DNA from: an uncultured Candidatus Saccharibacteria bacterium
Lineage (GTDB): Bacteria > Patescibacteriota > Saccharimonadia > Saccharimonadales > CAYLGV01
Length of the DNA stretch: 64,000 bases
Direction: 5' to 3'
Assembly: GCA_964394925.1 (NCBI GenBank)
Contig: CAYMZG010000004.1
Coordinates: 31,208 to 95,207, forward strand
Shown here: piece by piece, positions 14,715-37,070 of the stretch
How positions within the stretch are numbered: the first letter of the stretch is position 1
Layout: each line of letters begins with the position of its first letter
The notes under the pieces: generated by a model
What the model was told of the DNA's origin: nothing
What the model saw: only the letters and a program-made list of their open reading frames with translations
Database searches by the model: none
Position numbers and translations under genes: made by a program

Positions 14715-14739
14715 CACCAGGGGTGATTCGTGCTAGAGT
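14711..14739 (+). promoter_or_regulatory. Promoter of the rplJL operon
   Basis: TTGACA (14711-14716), 17-nt spacer, TAGAGT (14734-14739). Confidence 0.55.
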
Positions 14740-14744
14740 CATAG

Positions 14745-14875
14745 GGTTACCAAAGACAGTAGCGGCCGCGGATCGATACTCCAACGCTTAAGAATGCTAC
14801 CGAGGCACACATCCAGTAAAACTGTTTGTTTTTGTTTGTGAGCACTAGCCCTTGGTCAACGCCAGGGGCTTTTTG
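14745..14875 (+). ncRNA. Ribosomal protein L10 leader-like cis-regulatory RNA with terminator/attenuator
   Basis: ~200-nt untranslated leader before rplJ. Helix GTAGC (14759-14763)/GCTAC (14796-14800) encloses CGCTTAAGAATGC, which resembles the 23S GCUUAGAAGC L10/L11-region sequence. Followed by hairpin AGCCCTTGG/CCAGGGGCT plus TTTTT (14847-14875). Confidence 0.5.
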
Positions 14876-14945
14876 GTACAAGACAGCTACTAATAACAAG
14901 GTCGAAAGTATCTGTCTTAACTCATAAAAGTAAGGGAAGCATTAC

Positions 14946-19699: not shown

Positions 19700-21058
19700 A
19701 TGGAACCAAAGGGGGTCGCTCTACCACCACAAAATACCGATGCCGAAGCGAGTTTGCTCGGCGCGATTTTGATTGATACCGACGCCTTGGTACGTATTGC
19801 CGACAAAATCGCAGCTGATGATTTTTACGATGAGAAACACCGCTACATTTATGAAGCGATTATTCAATTATATGAAAAGCACAGCCCGATTGATGTTTTA
19901 ACCCTTGCAGACCAGTTGAAAGCCAATGGCACCCTCGATGCAATTGGCGGTTCATCATACCTTGCTGAGCTGACAAACTTTGTGCCGACTGCCAGCCATG
20001 TCGAACAATACGCCGACATTGTGGCCCAAAAGTCATTGCGCCGAAAACTTATTAAGGCTGCTCAAGACATCACGGGCCTTGGGTATAACGAAAGTACCGC
20101 CTTACAAGAATTAATTGAAGAGGCTGAGGCGCGCTTGTTTGAGGTAAGCCAAAAGCACATCAAGCAAGACATCACCAGCTTAGAAACCATCTTGAGTGAA
20201 AGTTTTGACCGTCTTGATGAACTCCACAAAGACAAAGGCAAGATCCGCGGTGTGCCGACCGGCTATAAGGATATGGACAATATTTTGGCCGGGTTGCAGC
20301 GCTCAGATCTGTTCATCCTGGCTGCAAGACCGTCGATGGGCAAAACCGCCCTGGCGTTGAACCTCGCCCACAACGTGTCCGTACAAGCCAAACAACCGGT
20401 GCTTATTTTTAGCCTCGAAATGAGCAAAGAACAGCTAGTGGACCGTATGCTTGCTATGGAATCAGGTGTGGATGCCTGGGCGCTCAGGACAGGCAACCTC
20501 ACGGACTCTGACTTTGAGAAAATTGGCCAGGCCATGGGCACGCTGAGCGAGGCCGAGATATACATTGATGATACGCCTGGTATTACCGTCAGTGAACTGC
20601 GCACCAAGGCGCGCCGCGAAGCCCACCTACATGATCTCGGCCTGATTATTGTTGACTATTTGCAGCTGATGAGTGGCGGTAATAAGTTTGGCGGTGAAGG
20701 TAACCGTGTGCAGGAAATTAGTGAAATATCCCGTGGTCTCAAGGGCGTTGCACGTGAGCTGAACGTGCCGCTCATTGCGCTCAGTCAGCTCAGTCGTTCG
20801 GTTGAAAGTCGAAGCCCGCAGATTCCACAGCTGGCCGACCTTCGTGAATCCGGTTCGATCGAGCAGGATGCCGACGTGGTAGCCTTCATTTACCGTGAAG
20901 ACTATTACAATCCCGAAACAGATCGCCGTAATGTCACTGATATTTTCATTAAGAAACACCGTAATGGCCCCACCGGTGCCGTTGAACTTTACTTCGACAA
21001 AGACAAGCAGCGCTTCCGAAGCCTGGACACCAAACACTCGCAGCCCTTCGAATCGTAA
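19700..21058 (+). CDS. dnaB: Replicative DNA helicase DnaB
   Basis: PPQNTDAEASLLGAIL N-terminus, Walker A ARPSMGKTA, IIVDYLQLM, SQLSR. Confidence 0.95.
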   Translation: MEPKGVALPPQNTDAEASLLGAILIDTDALVRIADKIAADDFYDEKHRYIYEAIIQLYEKHSPIDVLTLADQLKANGTLDAIGGSSYLAELTNFVPTASHVEQYADIVAQKSLRRKLIKAAQDITGLGYNESTALQELIEEAEARLFEVSQKHIKQDITSLETILSESFDRLDELHKDKGKIRGVPTGYKDMDNILAGLQRSDLFILAARPSMGKTALALNLAHNVSVQAKQPVLIFSLEMSKEQLVDRMLAMESGVDAWALRTGNLTDSDFEKIGQAMGTLSEAEIYIDDTPGITVSELRTKARREAHLHDLGLIIVDYLQLMSGGNKFGGEGNRVQEISEISRGLKGVARELNVPLIALSQLSRSVESRSPQIPQLADLRESGSIEQDADVVAFIYREDYYNPETDRRNVTDIFIKKHRNGPTGAVELYFDKDKQRFRSLDTKHSQPFES

Positions 21059-31064: not shown

Positions 31065-32324
31065 CTATAAATAGCCGCCGGCATGTGTGAGTCGCCACGG
31101 AATGGAACCTGAGCTTATAGCTCCTGTTGCCTCGGCCGTGAGCGGATAGGTCTGGTTTCCAACGTGCACCTGGACCGTGCCGACATCATCACCTTGCTTT
31201 ACACTCTTACCAAGGTTCGCGCCAACCAGCTCCGCCGAAGGTGCTTGGCCAGCCCACACAAGGGTGCGTAAGCCTTGGCGAGCTACCACCGTAGTGCTGC
31301 TGCCACCCGATTGATTCACCTTGCCAACAACCTGACCAGTTTTTACGACTTCAATGTTTTGGAAGTTCTTGAAGGTTTCATCTACCAACGGCTGTGACGA
31401 TTTAATGGCTTCGTATAGGTTCGTTGCGCCCATAACGGTGCCAACAACCGTAACTTTTTGACCTTCTACCTCACGACGAGCCGCAAACATAAAACAACCG
31501 CCGGCTTCGTCGGTATTCCCAGTCTTAACACCCACAATACCATCCTGGCCAAGCATGAAGTTCACGTTTGTAACAGTACCTGCAACAGGCAGGTCGGCTT
31601 CGGTTTGGCCAACAATCTCGGATATGACTGGGTGATTCATGGCAATTTCAGCGAGCTTAGTAAGATCAACTGCGGTGCTGGTGGTTTGGGGCGAAAAGCC
31701 GCTGGCGTCGGCCATGGTGGTGTTGGTCATACCAAGTGTCTTAGTAAAGGGGTTTACGTACGCCAGGTAATCGTTTGTTGAGCCAAAGGCCCAACGTGCC
31801 AGTACATCAGCCATGTTGTTAGCCGAAGGCAAGAGCAGCGCTTGTAAGGCCTGGTATTCGGTGAGCGTCTCGCCGGCGGTAACCTTAATGGTAGACTGCC
31901 CTTGAGCAGCGTAGGATTCATATGTTTTAACGTCTTCAGGAGTAATAGTAATCGTTTCGCCTTTGCCACCAGCAGGGATTGGCTTAGCCTTGAGTACTGC
32001 CAAAGCAGTAAGCACCTTGGCGACACTTGCGGTTGGCAGAGGCTTTTCATCACCATGTTTGGTTAAGAGTCCATAGCCTACAGCACCAACTGCCGCTTGA
32101 CCCTGCTCGGGCCATGGCATGCTGACTGGCTGAGCACCCCGCAGCTGTAATTTATCTGACGCCACCTGCAAAGAGGGCACGGGCAAGATCATCACAATCC
32201 CCACATAGAGTGCAATACACAACAGCAAGACGCGCCACCACAGATGTTTGCGTTTCTTCTTGTGCTGCGTCTTAACACGATGGTCACGACGCTCCTCCAG
32301 CTCCTTTGGATCCAACACTCGCAT
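31065..32324 (-). CDS. Serine-type D-Ala-D-Ala carboxypeptidase (PBP5/S11-like), membrane anchored
   Basis: SVAK (SxxK), SANN (SxN), KTGNT (KTG), and an N-terminal TM. Confidence 0.85.
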   Translation of the reverse strand: MRVLDPKELEERRDHRVKTQHKKKRKHLWWRVLLLCIALYVGIVMILPVPSLQVASDKLQLRGAQPVSMPWPEQGQAAVGAVGYGLLTKHGDEKPLPTASVAKVLTALAVLKAKPIPAGGKGETITITPEDVKTYESYAAQGQSTIKVTAGETLTEYQALQALLLPSANNMADVLARWAFGSTNDYLAYVNPFTKTLGMTNTTMADASGFSPQTTSTAVDLTKLAEIAMNHPVISEIVGQTEADLPVAGTVTNVNFMLGQDGIVGVKTGNTDEAGGCFMFAARREVEGQKVTVVGTVMGATNLYEAIKSSQPLVDETFKNFQNIEVVKTGQVVGKVNQSGGSSTTVVARQGLRTLVWAGQAPSAELVGANLGKSVKQGDDVGTVQVHVGNQTYPLTAEATGAISSGSIPWRLTHAGGYL

Positions 32325-32415
32325 TCTGCCTATGATTATAGCTGAACTGCTGTGTTTTTGGTTAGAAAAATGCTTATGGATATTATTGGTTTCGCGCTGC
32401 GGATTTTTAGAGATG

Positions 32416-32492: not shown

Positions 32493-32567
32493 TAGGGCGT
32501 GGCCAAGTGGTAAGGCACCAGGTTTTGGTCCTGGCATTCGGGGGTTCGAATCCCTCCGCCCTAGCCA
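32493..32567 (+). tRNA. tRNA-Gln (anticodon UUG), CCA encoded
   Basis: Cloverleaf read by hand: acceptor TAGGGCG/CGCCCTA with the U1:A72 pair typical of tRNA-Gln, D-arm GCCAAGTGGTAAGGCA, anticodon arm CCAGG-TTTTGGT-CCTGG, T-arm GGGGG-TTCGAAT-CCCTC, then GCCA. Aligns position by position with E. coli tRNA-Gln. Confidence 0.92.
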
Positions 32568-32610
32568 AAAAGGTTTGGCAGTGAGCATCGCTTGCTGGCA
32601 AACCTTTTTT
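32568..32610 (+). terminator. Intrinsic terminator after tRNA-Gln
   Basis: Stem AAAGGTTTGGCAG/CTGGCAAACCTTT (one mismatch) followed by TTTTTT. Confidence 0.65.
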
Positions 32611-32693
32611 ACTTGGCTGAAGGATTATATGAACGAGGTTCGGCGTAGCGGCGGCTTTGCCGTCCGCGGAGAAGCCCACCTTTGGTAGGCGCT

Positions 32694-32764
32694 ATCCCTC
32701 CGTCCTAGCCATAAGCATTTTGACCTCTGTTCGCAGAGGTTTTTGTTTTCGGTCGTGCTTGCAA
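32694..32764 (+). repeat. Cassette-array repeat copy A (carries tRNA 3'-end duplicate instead of the 5' box)
   Basis: ATCCCTCCGTCCTAGCCA (32694-32711) matches tRNA positions 32550-32567 at 17/18. It continues TAAGCATTTTGACCTCTG-TTCG-CAGAGGTTTTTGTTTT ... GCTTGCAA. Confidence 0.8.
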
Positions 32765-32809
32765 TCCGAGACTTACTACAAGACAATATGTCTATAAAGG
32801 AGTAAAGAA

Positions 32810-33121
32810 ATGGAACGCAAAGATATAGCATCTTCATACGGGCCGCGTGAGCCGCGACACGACAGAGTGTCTTTTGATGGAAGTGGTCGAGAAGCAGAAC
32901 TTCTCGTTACTGGATTACGAGCACTTGCAGCACAAATTGCGATTCGTGATGTAACCACGGAGGCTAGCAATGGCTATTTTTATCCACACGGTTCACGACA
33001 CCAAGGAGACGGTGTTCCTCTTGCTGGAGAAATAGCAACTCTGCTTGCACAGATTGAGAATCCAAATTTTGTTGAAGCCGAGACGGCATCCGAAACTCCA
33101 AAACCTGTAGTCAGTAGCTAG
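32810..33121 (+). CDS. Cassette 1: hypothetical protein (103 aa)
   Basis: ATG after AAGGAG. No motif recognised. Confidence 0.5.
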   Translation: MERKDIASSYGPREPRHDRVSFDGSGREAELLVTGLRALAAQIAIRDVTTEASNGYFYPHGSRHQGDGVPLAGEIATLLAQIENPNFVEAETASETPKPVVSS

Positions 33122-33146
33122 TCTAAGTTTTAACGATAACCTTAAA

Positions 33147-33234
33147 GTTCCGAAGTACATCAACCAAAGGTAGCCATAAGCACTTTAACCTCTGTTATGT
33201 CAGAGGTTTTTGTTTTTTGATATAATGATTATAT
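33147..33234 (+). repeat. Cassette-array repeat copy B
   Basis: GTTCCGAAGTACATCAACCAAAGGTAGCCATAAGCACTTTAACCTCTG-TTATGT-CAGAGGTTTTTGTTTTTT, then TGaTATAAT (extended -10) inside the palindrome ATATAATGATTATAT. Confidence 0.85.
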
Positions 33235-33484
33235 GGCTGAGGTAATCACACCAAATAGAACCGATATGCTTCTTGGAGTAATTAACGAGACACCTCCAGA
33301 AGAGCTGACTTCAAGCTATTTACTTGAAACGATGAAGGGCTATGAGGCGTTCTCGAAGTTTACACGGCGTGCTGTTATTGAATCATTGGCGCATCTAGAG
33401 ACTAATGGCCGTGTTGCGTTTGACCCTAAATTACACATCACCGACATTGGCTCGCAACGCCTCCATGACGTTGGGCTAATTTAA
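33233..33484 (+). CDS. Cassette 2: small protein (83 aa), possible winged-helix
   Basis: The ATG lies 6 nt after TATAAT (leaderless-looking). The FSKFTRRAVIESLAHLETNGRV segment looks like a wHTH recognition helix plus wing. This is inference only. Confidence 0.45.
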   Translation: MAEVITPNRTDMLLGVINETPPEELTSSYLLETMKGYEAFSKFTRRAVIESLAHLETNGRVAFDPKLHITDIGSQRLHDVGLI

Positions 33485-33499
33485 CGCATTAGCTCTCAA

Positions 33500-33590
33500 G
33501 TTCCGAAGTACATCGACCAAACCTAGCCAAGCATAAGCGGGATGAAGACTTCTTCGGAAGTCTTTTGTTTTCGTATACAATAAATGCATG
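33500..33590 (+). repeat. Cassette-array repeat copy C (divergent hairpin stem, same architecture)
   Basis: GTTCCGAAGTACATCGACCAAACCTAGCCAAGCATAAGC, then hairpin AAGACTTC-TTCG-GAAGTCTT plus T-run, then TACAAT and the ATGCAT palindrome. Confidence 0.75.
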
Positions 33591-34085
33591 TACAGTAAAG
33601 ATCTTGAGGGTAATCAGTATATAATATCTGACGATCAACTTTCTTGGCGACCTTCCGCTTACGGCATAGTAATTATGGATAATAAGATCCTTTTGGTGAG
33701 AGAAAATGGCAAATACCATCTTCCTGGAGGTGGCTTGGACTTTGGAGAAGACCCTAAAAACGCGGTGATACGTGAAGTAAGAGAAGAGACCGGCATAACA
33801 ACGGAGGATCCCATAATAATTGATGTAGTTAGCTCATTCTTTAGCTACGGTGCTAATGATAACCCTCCTAACTTGCAACACGTGAACTCACTACTTATCT
33901 ACTATTCCTGTAAATTTGTGAGCGAAGACGCAGGAGATATCAAATTAGATGAATATGAGAGAGAGGCTGGCTTATCACATGAATGGGTAGAAGTTAGTCA
34001 ACTTAATGAAATAACTGTCGGAACTACTGTTGACTGGCGCCCTCTCATAGCCCAGGTAGTTCCGAAGTACATCAACCAAAGGTAG
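33588..34085 (+). CDS. Cassette 3: NUDIX hydrolase
   Basis: Nudix box GGGLDFGEDPKNAVIREVREETGI. The ATG lies 6 nt after TACAAT. The last 8 codons plus the stop are encoded by repeat copy D. Confidence 0.8.
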   Translation: MYSKDLEGNQYIISDDQLSWRPSAYGIVIMDNKILLVRENGKYHLPGGGLDFGEDPKNAVIREVREETGITTEDPIIIDVVSSFFSYGANDNPPNLQHVNSLLIYYSCKFVSEDAGDIKLDEYEREAGLSHEWVEVSQLNEITVGTTVDWRPLIAQVVPKYINQR

Positions 34086-34142
34086 TCATAAGCACTTTAA
34101 CCTCTGTCCGCAGAGGTTTTTGTTTTACGCATATGCTTGCAA
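34059..34142 (+). repeat. Cassette-array repeat copy D
   Basis: GTTCCGAAGTACATCAACCAAAGGTAGTCATAAGCACTTTAACCTCTG-TCCG-CAGAGGTTTTTGTTTT-AC-GCATATGCTTGCAA. Confidence 0.85.
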
Positions 34143-34561
34143 TATATCCAACGCGGGACTTTAATAGTGTTATGCCAAGGAAAAGATGGGACAACCCTAC
34201 TACTATCAGCTTGTTTGAAGTTCATGATGAATTTCCATATGGCAGGCCACCCGTGATACACACCGAAGACATGACTCCAGAAGCGGTCAATGCTCGTGTC
34301 GCAAACAGAATGAACCAGCTACTAATGGAGCAGGTTGTAAAAACATTTGATGCCTATAGGGAAGATCCTGACACTCCACAAACCGTACTCCAGTCTCTAG
34401 CTGCTGGGGAGAATCTCTCTCTGAGCCAGATTGCAGCAATGCTTCAGGTCGTTCCGAGCACTGTTGAGCAAGATTTAGGTGTATTATGCGAAGTAGGTTG
34501 GGTGGCTGTAGATGACGATGGTATTATTCCAAAATATTCAATGATTGCCACTGAACGTTAG
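34133..34561 (+). CDS. Cassette 4: hypothetical protein with C-terminal winged-helix-like segment
   Basis: The ORF opens at the repeat-borne ATG (34133). The alternative start at 34172 lies 6 nt after TTGCAA-17-TTTAAT. The LSLSQIAAMLQVVPSTVEQDLGVLCEVGWV segment looks HTH-like. Confidence 0.5.
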   Translation: MLAIYPTRDFNSVMPRKRWDNPTTISLFEVHDEFPYGRPPVIHTEDMTPEAVNARVANRMNQLLMEQVVKTFDAYREDPDTPQTVLQSLAAGENLSLSQIAAMLQVVPSTVEQDLGVLCEVGWVAVDDDGIIPKYSMIATER

Positions 34562-34565
34562 AAAG

Positions 34566-34648
34566 GTTCCGAAGTACATCAACCAAAGGTAGCCATAAGC
34601 ACTTTGACCTCTGTTCGCAGAGGTTTTTGTTTTTGCATATGCTTGCAA
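34566..34648 (+). repeat. Cassette-array repeat copy E
   Basis: GTTCCGAAGTACATCAACCAAAGGTAGCCATAAGCACTTTGACCTCTG-TTCG-CAGAGGTTTTTGTTTTT-GCATATGCTTGCAA. Confidence 0.85.
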
Positions 34649-34677
34649 CCGAAAAACCAAAGGTATTAACTAGTCGT

Positions 34678-35085
34678 ATGAGTACAACAACCATCGAGAC
34701 AACCAAGACAGAAAAAGAAACACCCATCGAGAAACTTCAACAGGTTCGAAGAGCTGGGCTATTCATTGGTTCAGTTTGGGCATACGGACTTAAGGATGGG
34801 GATACATTCACCAAGGCTAAAGCGCTATGGACACCTACGGGCTACAATGTTGATAGTGGAAGACTTGCGGTATCAATTAATGAATGGGGGCCCGTACCAA
34901 TAAACGGCGCAGAGCAAATGGTTGTGGGCACTGGGGAGTTGGAGCGTGGGCAACAGCTACTCATGGACATTTTTGAAACTATGGCAAATAGGGGCATCAT
35001 TCAAATGGTAGCCGCGCCAGAGGTGCCGCCAACATATGAAGATAACTTGACTGCGATGCTTGTTGAAAGAGACGCTACTATCTAA
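34678..35085 (+). CDS. Cassette 5: hypothetical protein with NEWGPVP motif
   Basis: The ATG at 34678 lies 6 nt after TTGCAA-17-TTAACT. The ORF is also open from the repeat-borne ATG at 34639. Confidence 0.5.
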   Translation: MSTTTIETTKTEKETPIEKLQQVRRAGLFIGSVWAYGLKDGDTFTKAKALWTPTGYNVDSGRLAVSINEWGPVPINGAEQMVVGTGELERGQQLLMDIFETMANRGIIQMVAAPEVPPTYEDNLTAMLVERDATI

Positions 35086-35108
35086 CACTGACCTCGGTGT
35101 TCATACTA

Positions 35109-35181
35109 GTCCGATGGGGACGTAGCAATAAGCGTTTTGACCTCTGTTCGCATAGGTCTTTGTTTTTGCTATTGCTTGTAG
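35109..35181 (+). repeat. Cassette-array repeat copy F (degenerate)
   Basis: GTCCGATGGGGACGTAGCAATAAGCGTTTTGACCTCTG-TTCG-CATAGGTCTTTGTTTTTGCTATTGCTTGTAG. The hairpin has one mismatch. Confidence 0.65.
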
Positions 35182-35203
35182 TTTAGTAGGCAATACTTAT
35201 AAT
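35176..35203 (+). promoter_or_regulatory. Putative promoter of cassette 6
   Basis: TTGTAG (aligned with TTGCAA of the other copies), 16-nt spacer, TATAAT (35198-35203). Confidence 0.4.
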
Positions 35204-35221
35204 TATGCGCATGGAGAAAAT

Positions 35222-35629
35222 ATGACATCTGAGAAAACCCCACAGACTAAAGAACCATTTTCGGTAGAACGAATGGATCTACGTCAAACCGCACGTGTAT
35301 TGGGCGCAATGACCGGATATTTAGAGGCAGAGGCGACAGTGCGTGCTGCACATGGCATGAAAGAGGACGGTCCGCTCTTAGAACAAGTACGTGCTGAATA
35401 TGACCGCATTACACGATTAGTCGAGGACTCCGAGCCAGGCATTCGAGAAGACTTCTTTGCCGAACACCAGCCAAGATATGACGTACTAGATGGTATCTAC
35501 GACTGTGCGAGTGAAACATGCCCGCGCGTCGGCTACGAATCTCCCGAGTCCCGAAAAGAACATCATCGTATGTGGGGATTCGACAATCCGCTCATCGATA
35601 TACGGCAAACTCAATCACAAACTGAATAA
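35222..35629 (+). CDS. Cassette 6: hypothetical protein (135 aa)
   Basis: ATG after GGAGAAAA. No motif recognised. Confidence 0.5.
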   Translation: MTSEKTPQTKEPFSVERMDLRQTARVLGAMTGYLEAEATVRAAHGMKEDGPLLEQVRAEYDRITRLVEDSEPGIREDFFAEHQPRYDVLDGIYDCASETCPRVGYESPESRKEHHRMWGFDNPLIDIRQTQSQTE

Positions 35630-35672
35630 TTCCAGCGTAATACTGACCAAAGGTAACCAAAACAGCATATGC
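35629..35672 (+). repeat. Cassette-array repeat vestige G (5' box and GCATATGC junction, hairpin missing)
   Basis: ATTCCAGCGTAATACTGACCAAAGGTAACCAAAACAGCATATGC aligns with the 5' box (..ACCAAAGGTARCCA) and with the junction palindrome. Confidence 0.45.
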
Positions 35673-35956
35673 CAAACTACGAGGAACCCTATCTACAGAT
35701 TGAACATGATATGAGCGAAAATAGCCTGAAGCAACTGAGCTTCACAAAGACGCTCGGCTATGTGGGGGTTGGATTATGCGTGATAAGTTCAGTTGGTGAA
35801 ATGATCGTAGGTGCTACCGATAAGATTGCCAGCAATGCCATACCGCTCGCACTGAGTGCAGCGGTTATTTATGCATCTAATCGAAGAATGAGAGATCATG
35901 AGCAGAGGCTAGAGGAAATACAGGTTCTGTCTGAATACGAGAAGGAGCTTGGCTAA
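35669..35956 (+). CDS. Small membrane protein (95 aa)
   Basis: The start ATG is the one inside GCATATGC. Two hydrophobic segments. Confidence 0.45.
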   Translation: MPNYEEPYLQIEHDMSENSLKQLSFTKTLGYVGVGLCVISSVGEMIVGATDKIASNAIPLALSAAVIYASNRRMRDHEQRLEEIQVLSEYEKELG

Positions 35957-36032: not shown

Positions 36033-37070
36033 ATGGAAGTTCGCCACCTTATTCATCAAGTGACAGAGTCGGTAAAAGTCGGGCTTGAGTTAGGTCGAGA
36101 GACCACGCCACACATCGATGCACAGTTCATGGCAATTGCCAACCGTGAAGCCTCTAAGCCGGGTGCCTTCTTTGGTGTTGTTGGTGAAGAACAATTGCAG
36201 CCACCGAACCGACCGGACGCTATTAATCATAACCTGACGCTACTGCCTCCCAATGCCCTAAACAACCGAGAGATTAATGAGGCACTCAGCCTTGTAGATA
36301 TTATGCTTGGCACAGAACAAACGGCCCAAATCACGGAAAAGTTTGCTGAAGCAGCTGACGAGGTTGGCATTTTTGACAGGTTACAGCATGACCACAAGCG
36401 ACAGGGTGCAAAGTTAATTGTATTGAGTAATCACTTGGAACTACCAGACCAGGGCTTCACGATGGGCTTTTTGCACAAGGCGGCCGCCGAGCACGGTGTA
36501 GAACGACTTGAGAATTATCTGACTGCCGTAATTGGTCGTGTGGTTGGTTACTTTACGCTTGGCGAAACAAACGTTATTGATGGCATTTTACGCAGAGCTG
36601 GCAGCATTCTAAAGACATTTCCACGAGGGGGTAGTGAAGCACTCACCGAAGATGAGGAATTTGCCTTGGCCCTTTATCGGGGATACTGCAATCACAAAAC
36701 AAAAGAAGCGTTTTCTGATCTGATGAGCACCCAAGATGGTCGTATAGTTACCATTGCTCCAAGCGGCGAGCAGGACCATTTTGATGCCGAAGAAGGCACC
36801 GTAAAAATGCGTGCCTTTGGCGACGGAACCTGCAACATGATCATAGATGCCTGCAAAAGGGGCGCCATGGTTTTGCCGGTATTTGTGGACTACAGCACAA
36901 CCTCGAGTATTGTGGAGTTTCTTGAGCCACGTACCACAACGAGCACAGAAGATTGTCATGCCATCGGCCAGGAATTAGCCGCCGTTGGTACCGATGCTCG
37001 TGCCATCAAAACCAAAGAGTTACCCGAAGAAAAGCGCTATCAAGCCAGCATTAGCTATAGCAGCAACTAG
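36033..37070 (+). CDS. PlsC-like (LPLAT-family) acyltransferase candidate
   Basis: SNHLELPD (NHx4D), TFPRGGSE (FPEGT-like) and VLPVFVDY (VPV-like) occur in the expected order. RBS AGGAGAG. Confidence 0.5.
   Translation: MEVRHLIHQVTESVKVGLELGRETTPHIDAQFMAIANREASKPGAFFGVVGEEQLQPPNRPDAINHNLTLLPPNALNNREINEALSLVDIMLGTEQTAQITEKFAEAADEVGIFDRLQHDHKRQGAKLIVLSNHLELPDQGFTMGFLHKAAAEHGVERLENYLTAVIGRVVGYFTLGETNVIDGILRRAGSILKTFPRGGSEALTEDEEFALALYRGYCNHKTKEAFSDLMSTQDGRIVTIAPSGEQDHFDAEEGTVKMRAFGDGTCNMIIDACKRGAMVLPVFVDYSTTSSIVEFLEPRTTTSTEDCHAIGQELAAVGTDARAIKTKELPEEKRYQASISYSSN

Follow-up and report, generated by a model that had tools for sequence, protein, structure and literature searches.

A strain-variable array of single-gene cassettes behind tRNA-Gln in a Saccharimonadales chromosome, separated by repeats that contain the 3′ end of the tRNA

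How did a row of unrelated single genes, separated by copies of one short repeat, come to stand behind a single tRNA gene, and by what means is its content changed? We addressed this question in a stretch of 64,000 nucleotides (nt) from an uncultured member of the Saccharibacteria (Saccharimonadales), which belong to the Candidate Phyla Radiation (CPR). This stretch is called the window, and all coordinates are window positions. The genomes of Saccharibacteria and other CPR bacteria measure about 1 Mb; to our knowledge, they harbor few recognized mobile elements, and how these bacteria acquire genes is poorly understood. The array in question comprises seven direct copies (units A to G) of a composite repeat between seven unrelated open reading frames (ORFs) on the + strand (cassettes c1 to c7). 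It is bordered by tRNA-Gln(UUG) on one side and by a conserved acyltransferase-like gene of 345 amino acids (aa) on the other.

The unit is about 85 to 90 base pairs (bp) long and has three parts: a 24-nt box named X (GTTCCGAAGTAYATCAACCARNGG / GTTCCGAAGTACATCAACCAAAGG), which forms the left part of units B to E, a TAGCCA core, and the native 3′ flank of the tRNA. From the core rightwards, it consists of TAGCCA, TAAGCAC, a hairpin with a T-run, and GCTTGC, and it runs through GCTTGCAA; this right part includes the −35-like hexamer TTGCAA. The tRNA gene and the units are arranged as follows.

32493..32567, + strand: tRNA-Gln(UUG), CCA encoded (ARAGORN; Rfam tRNA, 63.6 bits)
32568..32693, + strand: noncoding insert of 126 bp with its own predicted terminator hairpin (about 32570-32612; inverted repeat and sequence)
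32694..32764, + strand: unit A, with an 18-nt duplicate of the tRNA-Gln 3′ end (32694-32711, 17/18), TAAGCA, a hairpin (32722-32741) with T-run, and TTGCAA (32759-32764) (direct-repeat family, terminator scan, nhmmer E = 1.4e-16)
33147..33226, + strand: unit B, with X (33147-33170), core TAGCCA (33171-33176), and hairpin (33187-33208) (nhmmer E = 9.5e-21)
33500..33581, + strand: unit C, with X (33500-33523), core (33524-33529), hairpin (33544-33565), and −10 element TACAAT (33576-33581)
34059..34142, + strand: unit D, with X (34059-34082), core TAGTCA (34083-34088), hairpin (34099-34118), and TTGCAA (34137-34142) (E = 1.6e-23)
34566..34648, + strand: unit E, with X (34566-34589), core (34590-34595), hairpin (34606-34625), and TTGCAA (34643-34648) (E = 2.2e-26)
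35099..35181, + strand: unit F, with a degenerate X, a hairpin with one mismatch, and TTGTAG (35176-35181), followed by a 16-nt spacer and TATAAT (E = 8.3e-15)
35629..35672, + strand: unit G, a vestige without hairpin in which a recognizable X plus core (ACCAAAGGTAACCA) is joined straight to GCATATGC; also present in the related locus L008

An earlier note on this DNA, made from the letters alone, had described copies A to G as a tRNA-anchored repeat. Direct-repeat analysis and alignment located all seven; the extents given for A, D, E, and G held, F starts at 35099 instead of 35109, and B and C end at 33226 and 33581, respectively. The near-identity that the note had seen among B, D, and E amounts to 82-100% over an ungapped 68 nt, B being lower through a 2-nt longer loop. 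A 35-nt box pattern matched these three units with at most one mismatch, with no match expected in shuffled sequence. An nhmmer profile built from 11 units recovered A to F at E values of 1e-14 to 2e-26. A hairpin with a T-run is present in A to F; folding shows the hairpins, and a scan called five of these units intrinsic-terminator-like. The note's claim that every repeat has a 5′ box, a hairpin, and a TTGCAA junction was too uniform: A is without the 5′ box, B and C are without TTGCAA, C has a different hairpin, F carries TTGTAG, and G is hairpin-less. In units B and C, the T-run leads straight into a −10 element, which in B is an extended −10 (TGATATAAT, ending at 33226). The deviating hairpin of unit C (GAAGACTTCTTCGGAAGTCTT) also follows a partial tRNA copy in the related locus L001 (GCA_964383395.1). 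Unit F has 13/30 matches to X plus core by hand count, its ends GTTC... and ...GTAGCAA being kept.

Our analysis brought out what the earlier note had missed: the core and right half of the repeat are the 3′ end of tRNA-Gln together with its flank, and copy A is a partial tRNA duplicate. The right part consists of the last 6 nt of the tRNA (TAGCCA) and its native 3′ flank, since in locus L009 an intact tRNA runs straight into this sequence. The L009 contig starts inside tRNA-Gln and reads ...CCCTCCGCCCTAGCCA and then TAAGCACTTTGACCTCTGTTCGCAGAGGTTTTTGTTTTTGGTTATGCTTGCG, with no insert between them, and unit E is identical to this tRNA-proximal flank at 55/59 positions. The D-Ala-D-Ala carboxypeptidase (DD-CPase) of L009, located on the partner contig L002, shows 88% protein identity to that of the window, with 42% identity at third codon positions. 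In a distant relative (L063), CATAAGCACTTTG...ATGCTTATGG stands directly after tRNA-Gln. In the window, the 126-bp insert separates tRNA-Gln from a displaced copy of its 3′ end; we interpret this insert as the scar of an earlier tRNA-targeted integration. In L001, an insert of about 150 bp, nonhomologous to that of the window, lies at the equivalent site, and a 19-nt copy of the tRNA 3′ end comes after it. Judged from sequence, an insert combined with a 3′-end duplicate is what integration into a tRNA gene classically leaves behind. The tRNA-derived core and the duplicate in copy A thus connect the array with recombination directed at a tRNA. TAGCCA is the exact point from which the cassette junctions are homologous to the tRNA site; leftwards of it stands either tRNA sequence or X. 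We also considered X as a diverged tRNA 3′ half. Once TAGCCA was removed, the alignment was no better than with shuffled sequences; such an origin is possible, but not demonstrable.

The X box starts 0-25 nt after each stop codon, except that the c3 ORF enters X and stops at the TAG of the core; X was not found beside tRNA-Gln itself. Folding predicted no RNA structure for X, which, together with its normally noncoding position, fits a protein-binding DNA site. In the seven full units, which come from three lineages, X plus core has a mean pairwise identity of 87-90% (83-89% between lineages); the 45 nt rightwards reach 60-62%, because several units have unrelated hairpins. These units (C of the window, L009a, and L001r) still carry X-TAGCCA. 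Between the lineages, synonymous sites are saturated, and identity in the spacer between DD-CPase and the tRNA is about 65-70%. The conservation of X plus core despite this saturation indicates that X-TAGCCA is constrained or exchanged between lineages, and it constantly marks the 3′ end of a cassette.

In the sequences searched, the unit is confined to arrays. Apart from the array copies, nhmmer found none in the 64-kb window and none in the related loci; over this range, it is not a terminator family scattered behind unrelated genes. The X-box pattern had a single match among 185,579 species representatives, at the L001 locus, which belongs to the only related genome in that set. Neither the terminator part nor the box had a match in a viral collection (0 matches each), a relaxed X-core pattern had 0 matches in the Joint Genome Institute (JGI) metagenome collection, and Rfam at a permissive threshold returned tRNA only and no match for the unit. 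Searches of the literature yielded no comparable array for Saccharibacteria or Patescibacteria. The earlier note's author had not recognized the repeat family, and it is likewise without a match in Rfam, the phage collection, and the literature. In 80 loci of relatives with 39-54% DD-CPase identity, tRNA-Gln lies beside DD-CPase in 12, and X occurs in none. A separate observation concerns the spacer between the DD-CPase start and the tRNA-Gln promoter, where an inverted partial copy of the unit center lies at 32367-32391. Read in reverse complement (AACCAATAATATCCATAAGCATTTT), it agrees with AACCAAAGGTAGCCATAAGCACTTT of units B and E at 20/25 positions, and an AAAATGC motif recurs at this site in relatives.

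As the earlier note had reported, each interval between units holds one ORF on the same strand.

32810..33121, + strand: c1, 103-aa orphan with an AGGAG Shine-Dalgarno sequence (singleton cluster; no Pfam, PHROG, or PADLOC match)
33233..33484, + strand: c2, 83-aa orphan, its ATG 6 nt past the −10; probably leaderless
33588..34085, + strand: c3, NUDIX hydrolase, 165 aa (Pfam NUDIX, E = 1.2e-17)
34172..34561, + strand: c4, 129 aa, weak winged-helix match (sub-threshold Pfam HTH; the 129-aa form is the cluster representative)
34678..35085, + strand: c5, 135-aa orphan; an HD-domain gene stands at the equivalent position in L008
35222..35629, + strand: c6, 135 aa, GGAG Shine-Dalgarno sequence; 94% amino acid identity to L008
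35669..35956, + strand: c7 (or possibly a native downstream gene), 95-aa predicted membrane protein, 93% identical in L008

The cassette genes are unrelated to each other: all-against-all BLASTP of the window's cassette ORFs gave no match below E = 1, which excludes tandem gene duplication. Most of the stacked genes are orphans, the recognizable ones being NUDIX, HD, DUF218, and PafA-like. In a set of about 15 billion proteins clustered at 90% identity, every cassette protein is either a singleton or part of a two-member cluster; PHROGs and PADLOC gave nothing usable. The c6 family has only 12 related clusters among 1.84 billion representatives. With 20 synonymous and 8 nonsynonymous codon differences from its L008 counterpart, c6 is under purifying selection. 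The closest c6 homologue outside its 90% cluster (L095:901-1308, 57% identical) lies on an AT-rich contig without X units, in a gene cluster tightly coupled through Shine-Dalgarno sequences. Its stop codon is followed by TAGTTCCG...TTGCAA...ATCAAC, recalling the start of the X box.

The expression signals predicted around the cassettes follow a consistent geometry, with a terminator after each gene and a promoter-like element before it, in line with the earlier note. Upstream of c4, TTGCAA is followed by 17 nt, TTTAAT, 6 nt, and ATG, and upstream of c5 by 17 nt, TTAACT, 6 nt, and ATG. The c2 start lies 6 nt after the T-run fused to TGATATAAT, and the c3 start lies 6 nt after TACAAT. Short leaders with a Shine-Dalgarno sequence follow the −10 elements GACAAT (c1) and TATAAT (c6). 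The secE promoter of the window, with which the earlier note had compared the hexamer, indeed reads TTGCAA, 17 nt, TATATT. The −35 falls within the shared unit, and the −10 belongs to each cassette. We infer that a unit terminates the upstream cassette and supplies the next one with its −35 or extended −10. Four cassette starts are located exactly 6 nt past a −10-like hexamer and have no Shine-Dalgarno sequence (33221-33235, 33576-33590, 34160-34174, and 34666-34680); the c2 to c5 mRNAs are probably leaderless in this Saccharimonadales lineage. As unit G has no terminator hairpin, c6 and c7 are probably cotranscribed.

Comparison of related loci bore out that cassette content differs between relatives. 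The L001 array holds a NUDIX gene unlike that of the window (35% identical), a single X unit whose hairpin shows a compensatory change, and a gene for a 79-aa membrane protein. The L009 array contains, in order, a 99-aa gene, an X unit with an unrelated hairpin, a 258-aa gene, a further X unit, a DUF218 gene, the vestige GCTTATGCTTGCAA, and a PafA-like gene. L008 is 93-95% identical to the window over c6, c7, and the 345-aa gene and has an HD-domain gene in place of c5; homology to the window breaks at the GTAG of the unit F core, and the gene upstream differs. In L092, yet another gene stands upstream of the orthologue of the 345-aa gene. According to tblastn, no cassette is common to the window, L001, and L009 arrays, and L008 has only c6 and c7 in common with the window. 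Thus, the array is lineage- and strain-variable, locus-specific, and made of self-contained single-gene units. From these comparative data, we infer that the cassettes are mobile and that the units are the points at which they are exchanged. The tRNA-proximal units B to E are near-consensus, F and G at the distal end are degenerate, and the distal end of the L009 array also has a vestige only; the array therefore appears polar, with good units near the tRNA and decayed ones distal to it.

The window lacks two larger lineage-specific genes of these loci: in L001, a 603-aa orphan located past the 353-aa orthologue of the 345-aa gene (L001:5693-7504), and in L009, the Pup-ligase (PafA)-like gene after the vestige (L009:2195-3688). 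Contig breaks inside tRNA-Gln (L002, L003, and L009) were considered as a sign of array heterogeneity. This was rejected, because the breaks fall in the anticodon stem, where the tRNA variants of co-occurring species diverge.

The flanks of the array are conserved, with DD-CPase and tRNA-Gln on the left and the 345-aa gene and cytochrome bd on the right; between them, content varies.

31065..32324, − strand: DD-CPase (Peptidase_S11; Pfam PF00768, E = 3.7e-23), conserved left flank
36033..37070, + strand: soluble GPAT/PatA-like acyltransferase, 345 aa, conserved right flank; orthologues in L001, L008, L009, and L092

The DD-CPase gene is divergent from tRNA-Gln, an adjacency also found in L001 and in the 12 distant loci, and the homologues of its product place the organism in the Saccharimonadales. 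The G+C content is 41-46% in the array and 49-53% in the flanks. The 345-aa protein has no Pfam match; its AlphaFold model (pLDDT 83) matches 8ia1_A in Foldseek (E = 3e-5), and it carries an NHxxxxD motif (SNHLELPD). The predicted GPAT/PatA-like acyltransferase fold rules it out as a hidden recombinase. Its family has only 13 members among 5.8 billion proteins. A 53%-identical homologue (L094:917-1948) lies on a high-G+C contig that looks actinobacterial; the gene may have passed between Saccharibacteria and their Actinobacteria hosts. The remaining gene content of the window consists of housekeeping genes of a Saccharimonadales chromosome, and the phage collection had no matches to the window apart from the tRNA. 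GC skew, examined as a pointer to the position of the terminus and dif, has a small amplitude in the window. An ordinary feature of the window is the ribosomal protein L10 leader at 14732-14884 (Rfam RF00557, 53.5 bits) upstream of rplJ/rplL. The DnaB gene contains a LAGLIDADG intein (about 800 aa) in L001 (20823-end) and L002 (11277-end), relatives at 88-89% DD-CPase identity, and is intein-free (452 aa) in the window (19700-21058) and in L003.

Consistent with the earlier note, no recombinase was found in the window. Searches with phmmer, using a hand-typed XerD probe and no positive control, detected no tyrosine recombinase among the ORFs of 90 aa or more encoded by the window and 91 loci. 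With this XerD probe and the recombinases of L061 and L016 as probes, no tyrosine or serine recombinase was detected in the window or its close relatives. Pfam detected no recombinase among the unannotated window ORFs, nor did the precomputed annotation of L001 and L009 contain one. Two distant relatives, L061 and L016, have a large serine recombinase (Resolvase, Recombinase, and Zn_ribbon) and a Replic_Relax gene abutting tRNA-Gln. No second attachment site of these elements and no X box in them was found within the sequence fetched. In two other distant loci, L012 and L077, partial tRNA-Gln copies of 25-29 nt bracket single genes. These arrangements mark tRNA-Gln as a recombination hot spot and recombinase target in distant relatives. 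The recombinase ORFs of L061 (8097-9923) and L016 (4557-6074) run antisense through the whole tRNA-Gln before their stop codon, so that the recombinase C terminus may be encoded across the attachment site; in the L016 protein, no Resolvase domain was detected. Directly upstream of the distal partial tRNA-Gln copy, L012 and L077 have in common a conserved sequence (about 65 nt, TGTAAGCTA..ATAGGG..GA.TCC..ACGG), located at about 2420-2490 nt downstream of the tRNA (reverse strand) in L012 and at about 990-1050 nt in L077. It could be an attachment arm or a small RNA.

What, then, would move the cassettes? Site-specific recombination at X-TAGCCA against the tRNA-Gln end, with a recombinase acting in trans, is a plausible answer, to which we give somewhat less than an even chance. 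Cassettes would be gained, lost, and replaced through recombination of the cassette-borne X-TAGCCA with the tRNA-Gln 3′ end or with another unit, and the recombinase would be encoded away from the array. New cassettes would enter next to the tRNA, pushing older cassettes and decaying units distally. Borrowing a recombinase has parallels in cis-mobilizable elements (CIMEs), in integrative mobile elements exploiting Xer (IMEX), and in pdif modules. We slightly favor site-specific recombination in trans over homologous recombination because homology begins precisely with the last 6 nt of the tRNA, because X and the core are conserved even beside unrelated hairpins, because tRNA 3′ ends are canonical recombinase targets and this one is demonstrably used, and because the array appears polar.

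Several points weigh against site-specific recombination. The searches found no recombinase in the 64 kb of the window or in the loci of close relatives (about 50 kb), which makes the catalyst hypothetical. Among the loci compared, we saw neither an excised circle nor an empty site, nor one cassette at two different positions. Cassette c5 and the HD cassette of L008 differ between strains that are about 94% identical, and both have degenerate X boxes, a misfit with X-dependent insertion. For two single-nucleotide polymorphisms (SNPs) of the right part, the nhmmer alignment shows each of the four possible combinations in some unit, which suggests gene conversion or homologous exchange. The similarity of X to the tRNA 3′ half beyond TAGCCA is not significant when alignments are compared with shuffles. 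The terminator and promoter roles of the units are predictions from motifs, and the sample is four arrays, all from one narrow clade.

Some of these points fit homologous exchange better. Promoter early stem-loops (PeSLs) of T4-type phages flank orphan genes, mediate insertions and deletions, and form mini-circles (PMC2839356, PMC4122927). By analogy, the units could be regulatory terminator/promoter modules over whose 60-90 bp RecA-dependent exchange loops out, reinserts, and swaps single genes, with no dedicated recombinase and with new cassettes brought in by natural transformation with DNA of related strains. The terminator and promoter make-up of the unit matches that of PeSLs (PMC2839356, PMC4122927), Saccharibacteria are naturally competent and transformable (PMC10633639), and the window and close relatives are without a recombinase. 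Furthermore, X copies are more alike within a genome (0.94) than between genomes (0.83), the right-part SNPs form a four-gamete mosaic, and the cassettes with a degenerate X (c5 and HD) still differ between close strains. However, C, L009a, and L001r have only 30-36 nt (X and core) in common, which is marginal for RecA, and yet they sit at junctions. Exchange of this kind also leaves unexplained why tRNA homology starts exactly at the last 6 nt, why X is the best-conserved segment, and why the units are confined to one tRNA locus when PeSLs are dispersed; moreover, homologous recombination between direct repeats favors loss over gain. We consider it the main rival, possible but rather doubtful.

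Two further explanations are less probable in our judgment. Each cassette could be the last cargo gene of a larger element, for example one with a large serine recombinase, that integrated repeatedly at tRNA-Gln, genome-reducing deletions having taken the recombination and replication genes and X being the attP arm of the element. The serine recombinase and Replic_Relax elements at tRNA-Gln in L061 and L016 speak for this, as do partial tRNA copies flanking integrase-less segments in L012, L077, the window (A), and L001, and tycheposon islands with stacked elements, fragmented integrases, and scattered partial tRNAs (10.1101/2020.12.28.424599). Such accretion would nevertheless demand 6-7 independent decays, each ending at one intact ORF with its own promoter and a 3′ untranslated region (UTR) of 0-25 nt abutting X, with no pseudogene or integrase fragment left. 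The X junctions carry 6 nt of the tRNA versus 18-29 nt in true partial copies, and the fetched parts of the L061 and L016 elements contain no X. Repeated accretion is unlikely in our view. Finally, the units could be duplicated regulatory or RNA modules that do not move at all, X being an activator site at about −85 from the next promoter or a 3′-UTR processing or stability motif with a tRNA-like end (...GCCA). Ordinary deletion would then account for lineage differences, or homologous recombination in the flanks would have replaced the genes between them as for the 'minimal mobile elements' of Neisseria, with DD-CPase/tRNA and the 345-aa gene/cytochrome bd as possible long homology arms. This agrees with the position of X in every cassette's 3′ UTR, where the terminator follows directly and the next promoter lies downstream, and with a right part that evidently functions as the tRNA's own terminator. 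It leaves unexplained, however, why unrelated genes are all bracketed by one unit. X has no predicted structure and no Rfam match, and the first cassette after the tRNA has no X upstream and yet is organized alike. We hold immobile modules to be very improbable.

A bolder proposal is that the array represents a new gene-capture platform, integron-like but independent of IntI/attC, in which the tRNA-Gln 3′ end would serve as attI, the 30-nt cassette-borne X-TAGCCA as attC, and an unlinked enzyme (an Xer-type host recombinase or the integrase of a transient element) as catalyst. Minimal single-gene cassettes with their own terminator and promoter would then be inserted tRNA-proximally. We advance this only tentatively and think it on the whole unlikely. 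For these epibionts, a dedicated hot spot at which single, self-expressed genes are stacked and exchanged would offer a compact means of gene flux. If a trans-acting recombinase is at work, the integron principle would have been invented a second time and independently, and X-TAGCCA with the tRNA-Gln end could become a landing pad for engineering Saccharibacteria. If homology drives the exchange, the phage PeSL principle would extend to a cellular chromosome.

How does the array compare with known systems? The earlier note had called it integron-like. This holds for the layout: like integrons (e.g., the Vibrio cholerae VCR superintegron), it lines up single-gene cassettes in one direction, most of them orphans and all with a conserved repeat at their end, with strain-variable content, a fixed chromosomal anchor, and a distal part that is older and common to strains. 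It does not hold for the machinery. No intI is located beside the array or anywhere in the window, and the note was right that the unit is not attC-like: it is without the R″/L″-L′/R′ palindrome, its only palindrome being the 8-bp terminator stem, and its box starts with GTTCCGA and not with GTTRRRY. True attC sites recombine as folded single strands, and integron cassettes are promoterless and read from a common Pc promoter beside attI. Here, each cassette has a putative −35/−10 geometry of its own after a terminator, and the anchor is a tRNA 3′ end and not attI.

With PeSLs, the array shares a composite repeat of sigma-70-like promoter and terminator stem-loop, as predicted from sequence, around single orphan genes, and also insertions, deletions, and replacements between close relatives that map to the repeats in a hyperplastic region. 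PeSLs, however, are dispersed in phage genomes and depend on phage homologous recombination, whereas this array is bacterial and sits at one tRNA locus; its best-conserved part, X-TAGCCA, is neither promoter nor terminator.

Phage morons are likewise autonomous promoter-gene-terminator units between other genes, but they are not bounded by a shared repeat, and the array has neither prophage context nor PHROG matches. Unlike a generic terminator or repetitive extragenic palindrome (REP)-like family, the unit has copies only in arrays among the sequences searched. Small recombinase-less modules with short conserved sites that use the host Xer recombinase in trans are known as the pdif modules of Acinetobacter and as IMEX. 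The array also consists of small recombinase-less gene modules bounded by short conserved sites, but its unit is not dif-like: a left arm, GGTAGCCATAA, matches the Escherichia coli XerC arm at 8/11 positions, and the XerD arm has no match, in a comparison made by eye, without statistics, against E. coli arms that may not represent the host's dif.

Tycheposons (10.1101/2020.12.28.424599) and the accretion of integrative and conjugative elements (ICEs) and CIMEs resemble the array in the tRNA 3′-end target and the partial tRNA repeats, in the proposal that new arrivals push older ones inward, and in integrase-less units that are perhaps mobilized in trans. The direct partial-tRNA repeats of tRNA islands are matched by A (18 nt, 17/18) and minimally by B to G (6 nt, TAGCCA). 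Those elements, however, are kilobases long and have a present or recent tyrosine recombinase and replication genes, whereas the array units measure 350-560 bp, hold one gene each, and retain no recombinase remnant, being an order of magnitude smaller. The array is integron-like in its layout and PeSL-like in the composition of its repeat, and it departs from the defining features of both.

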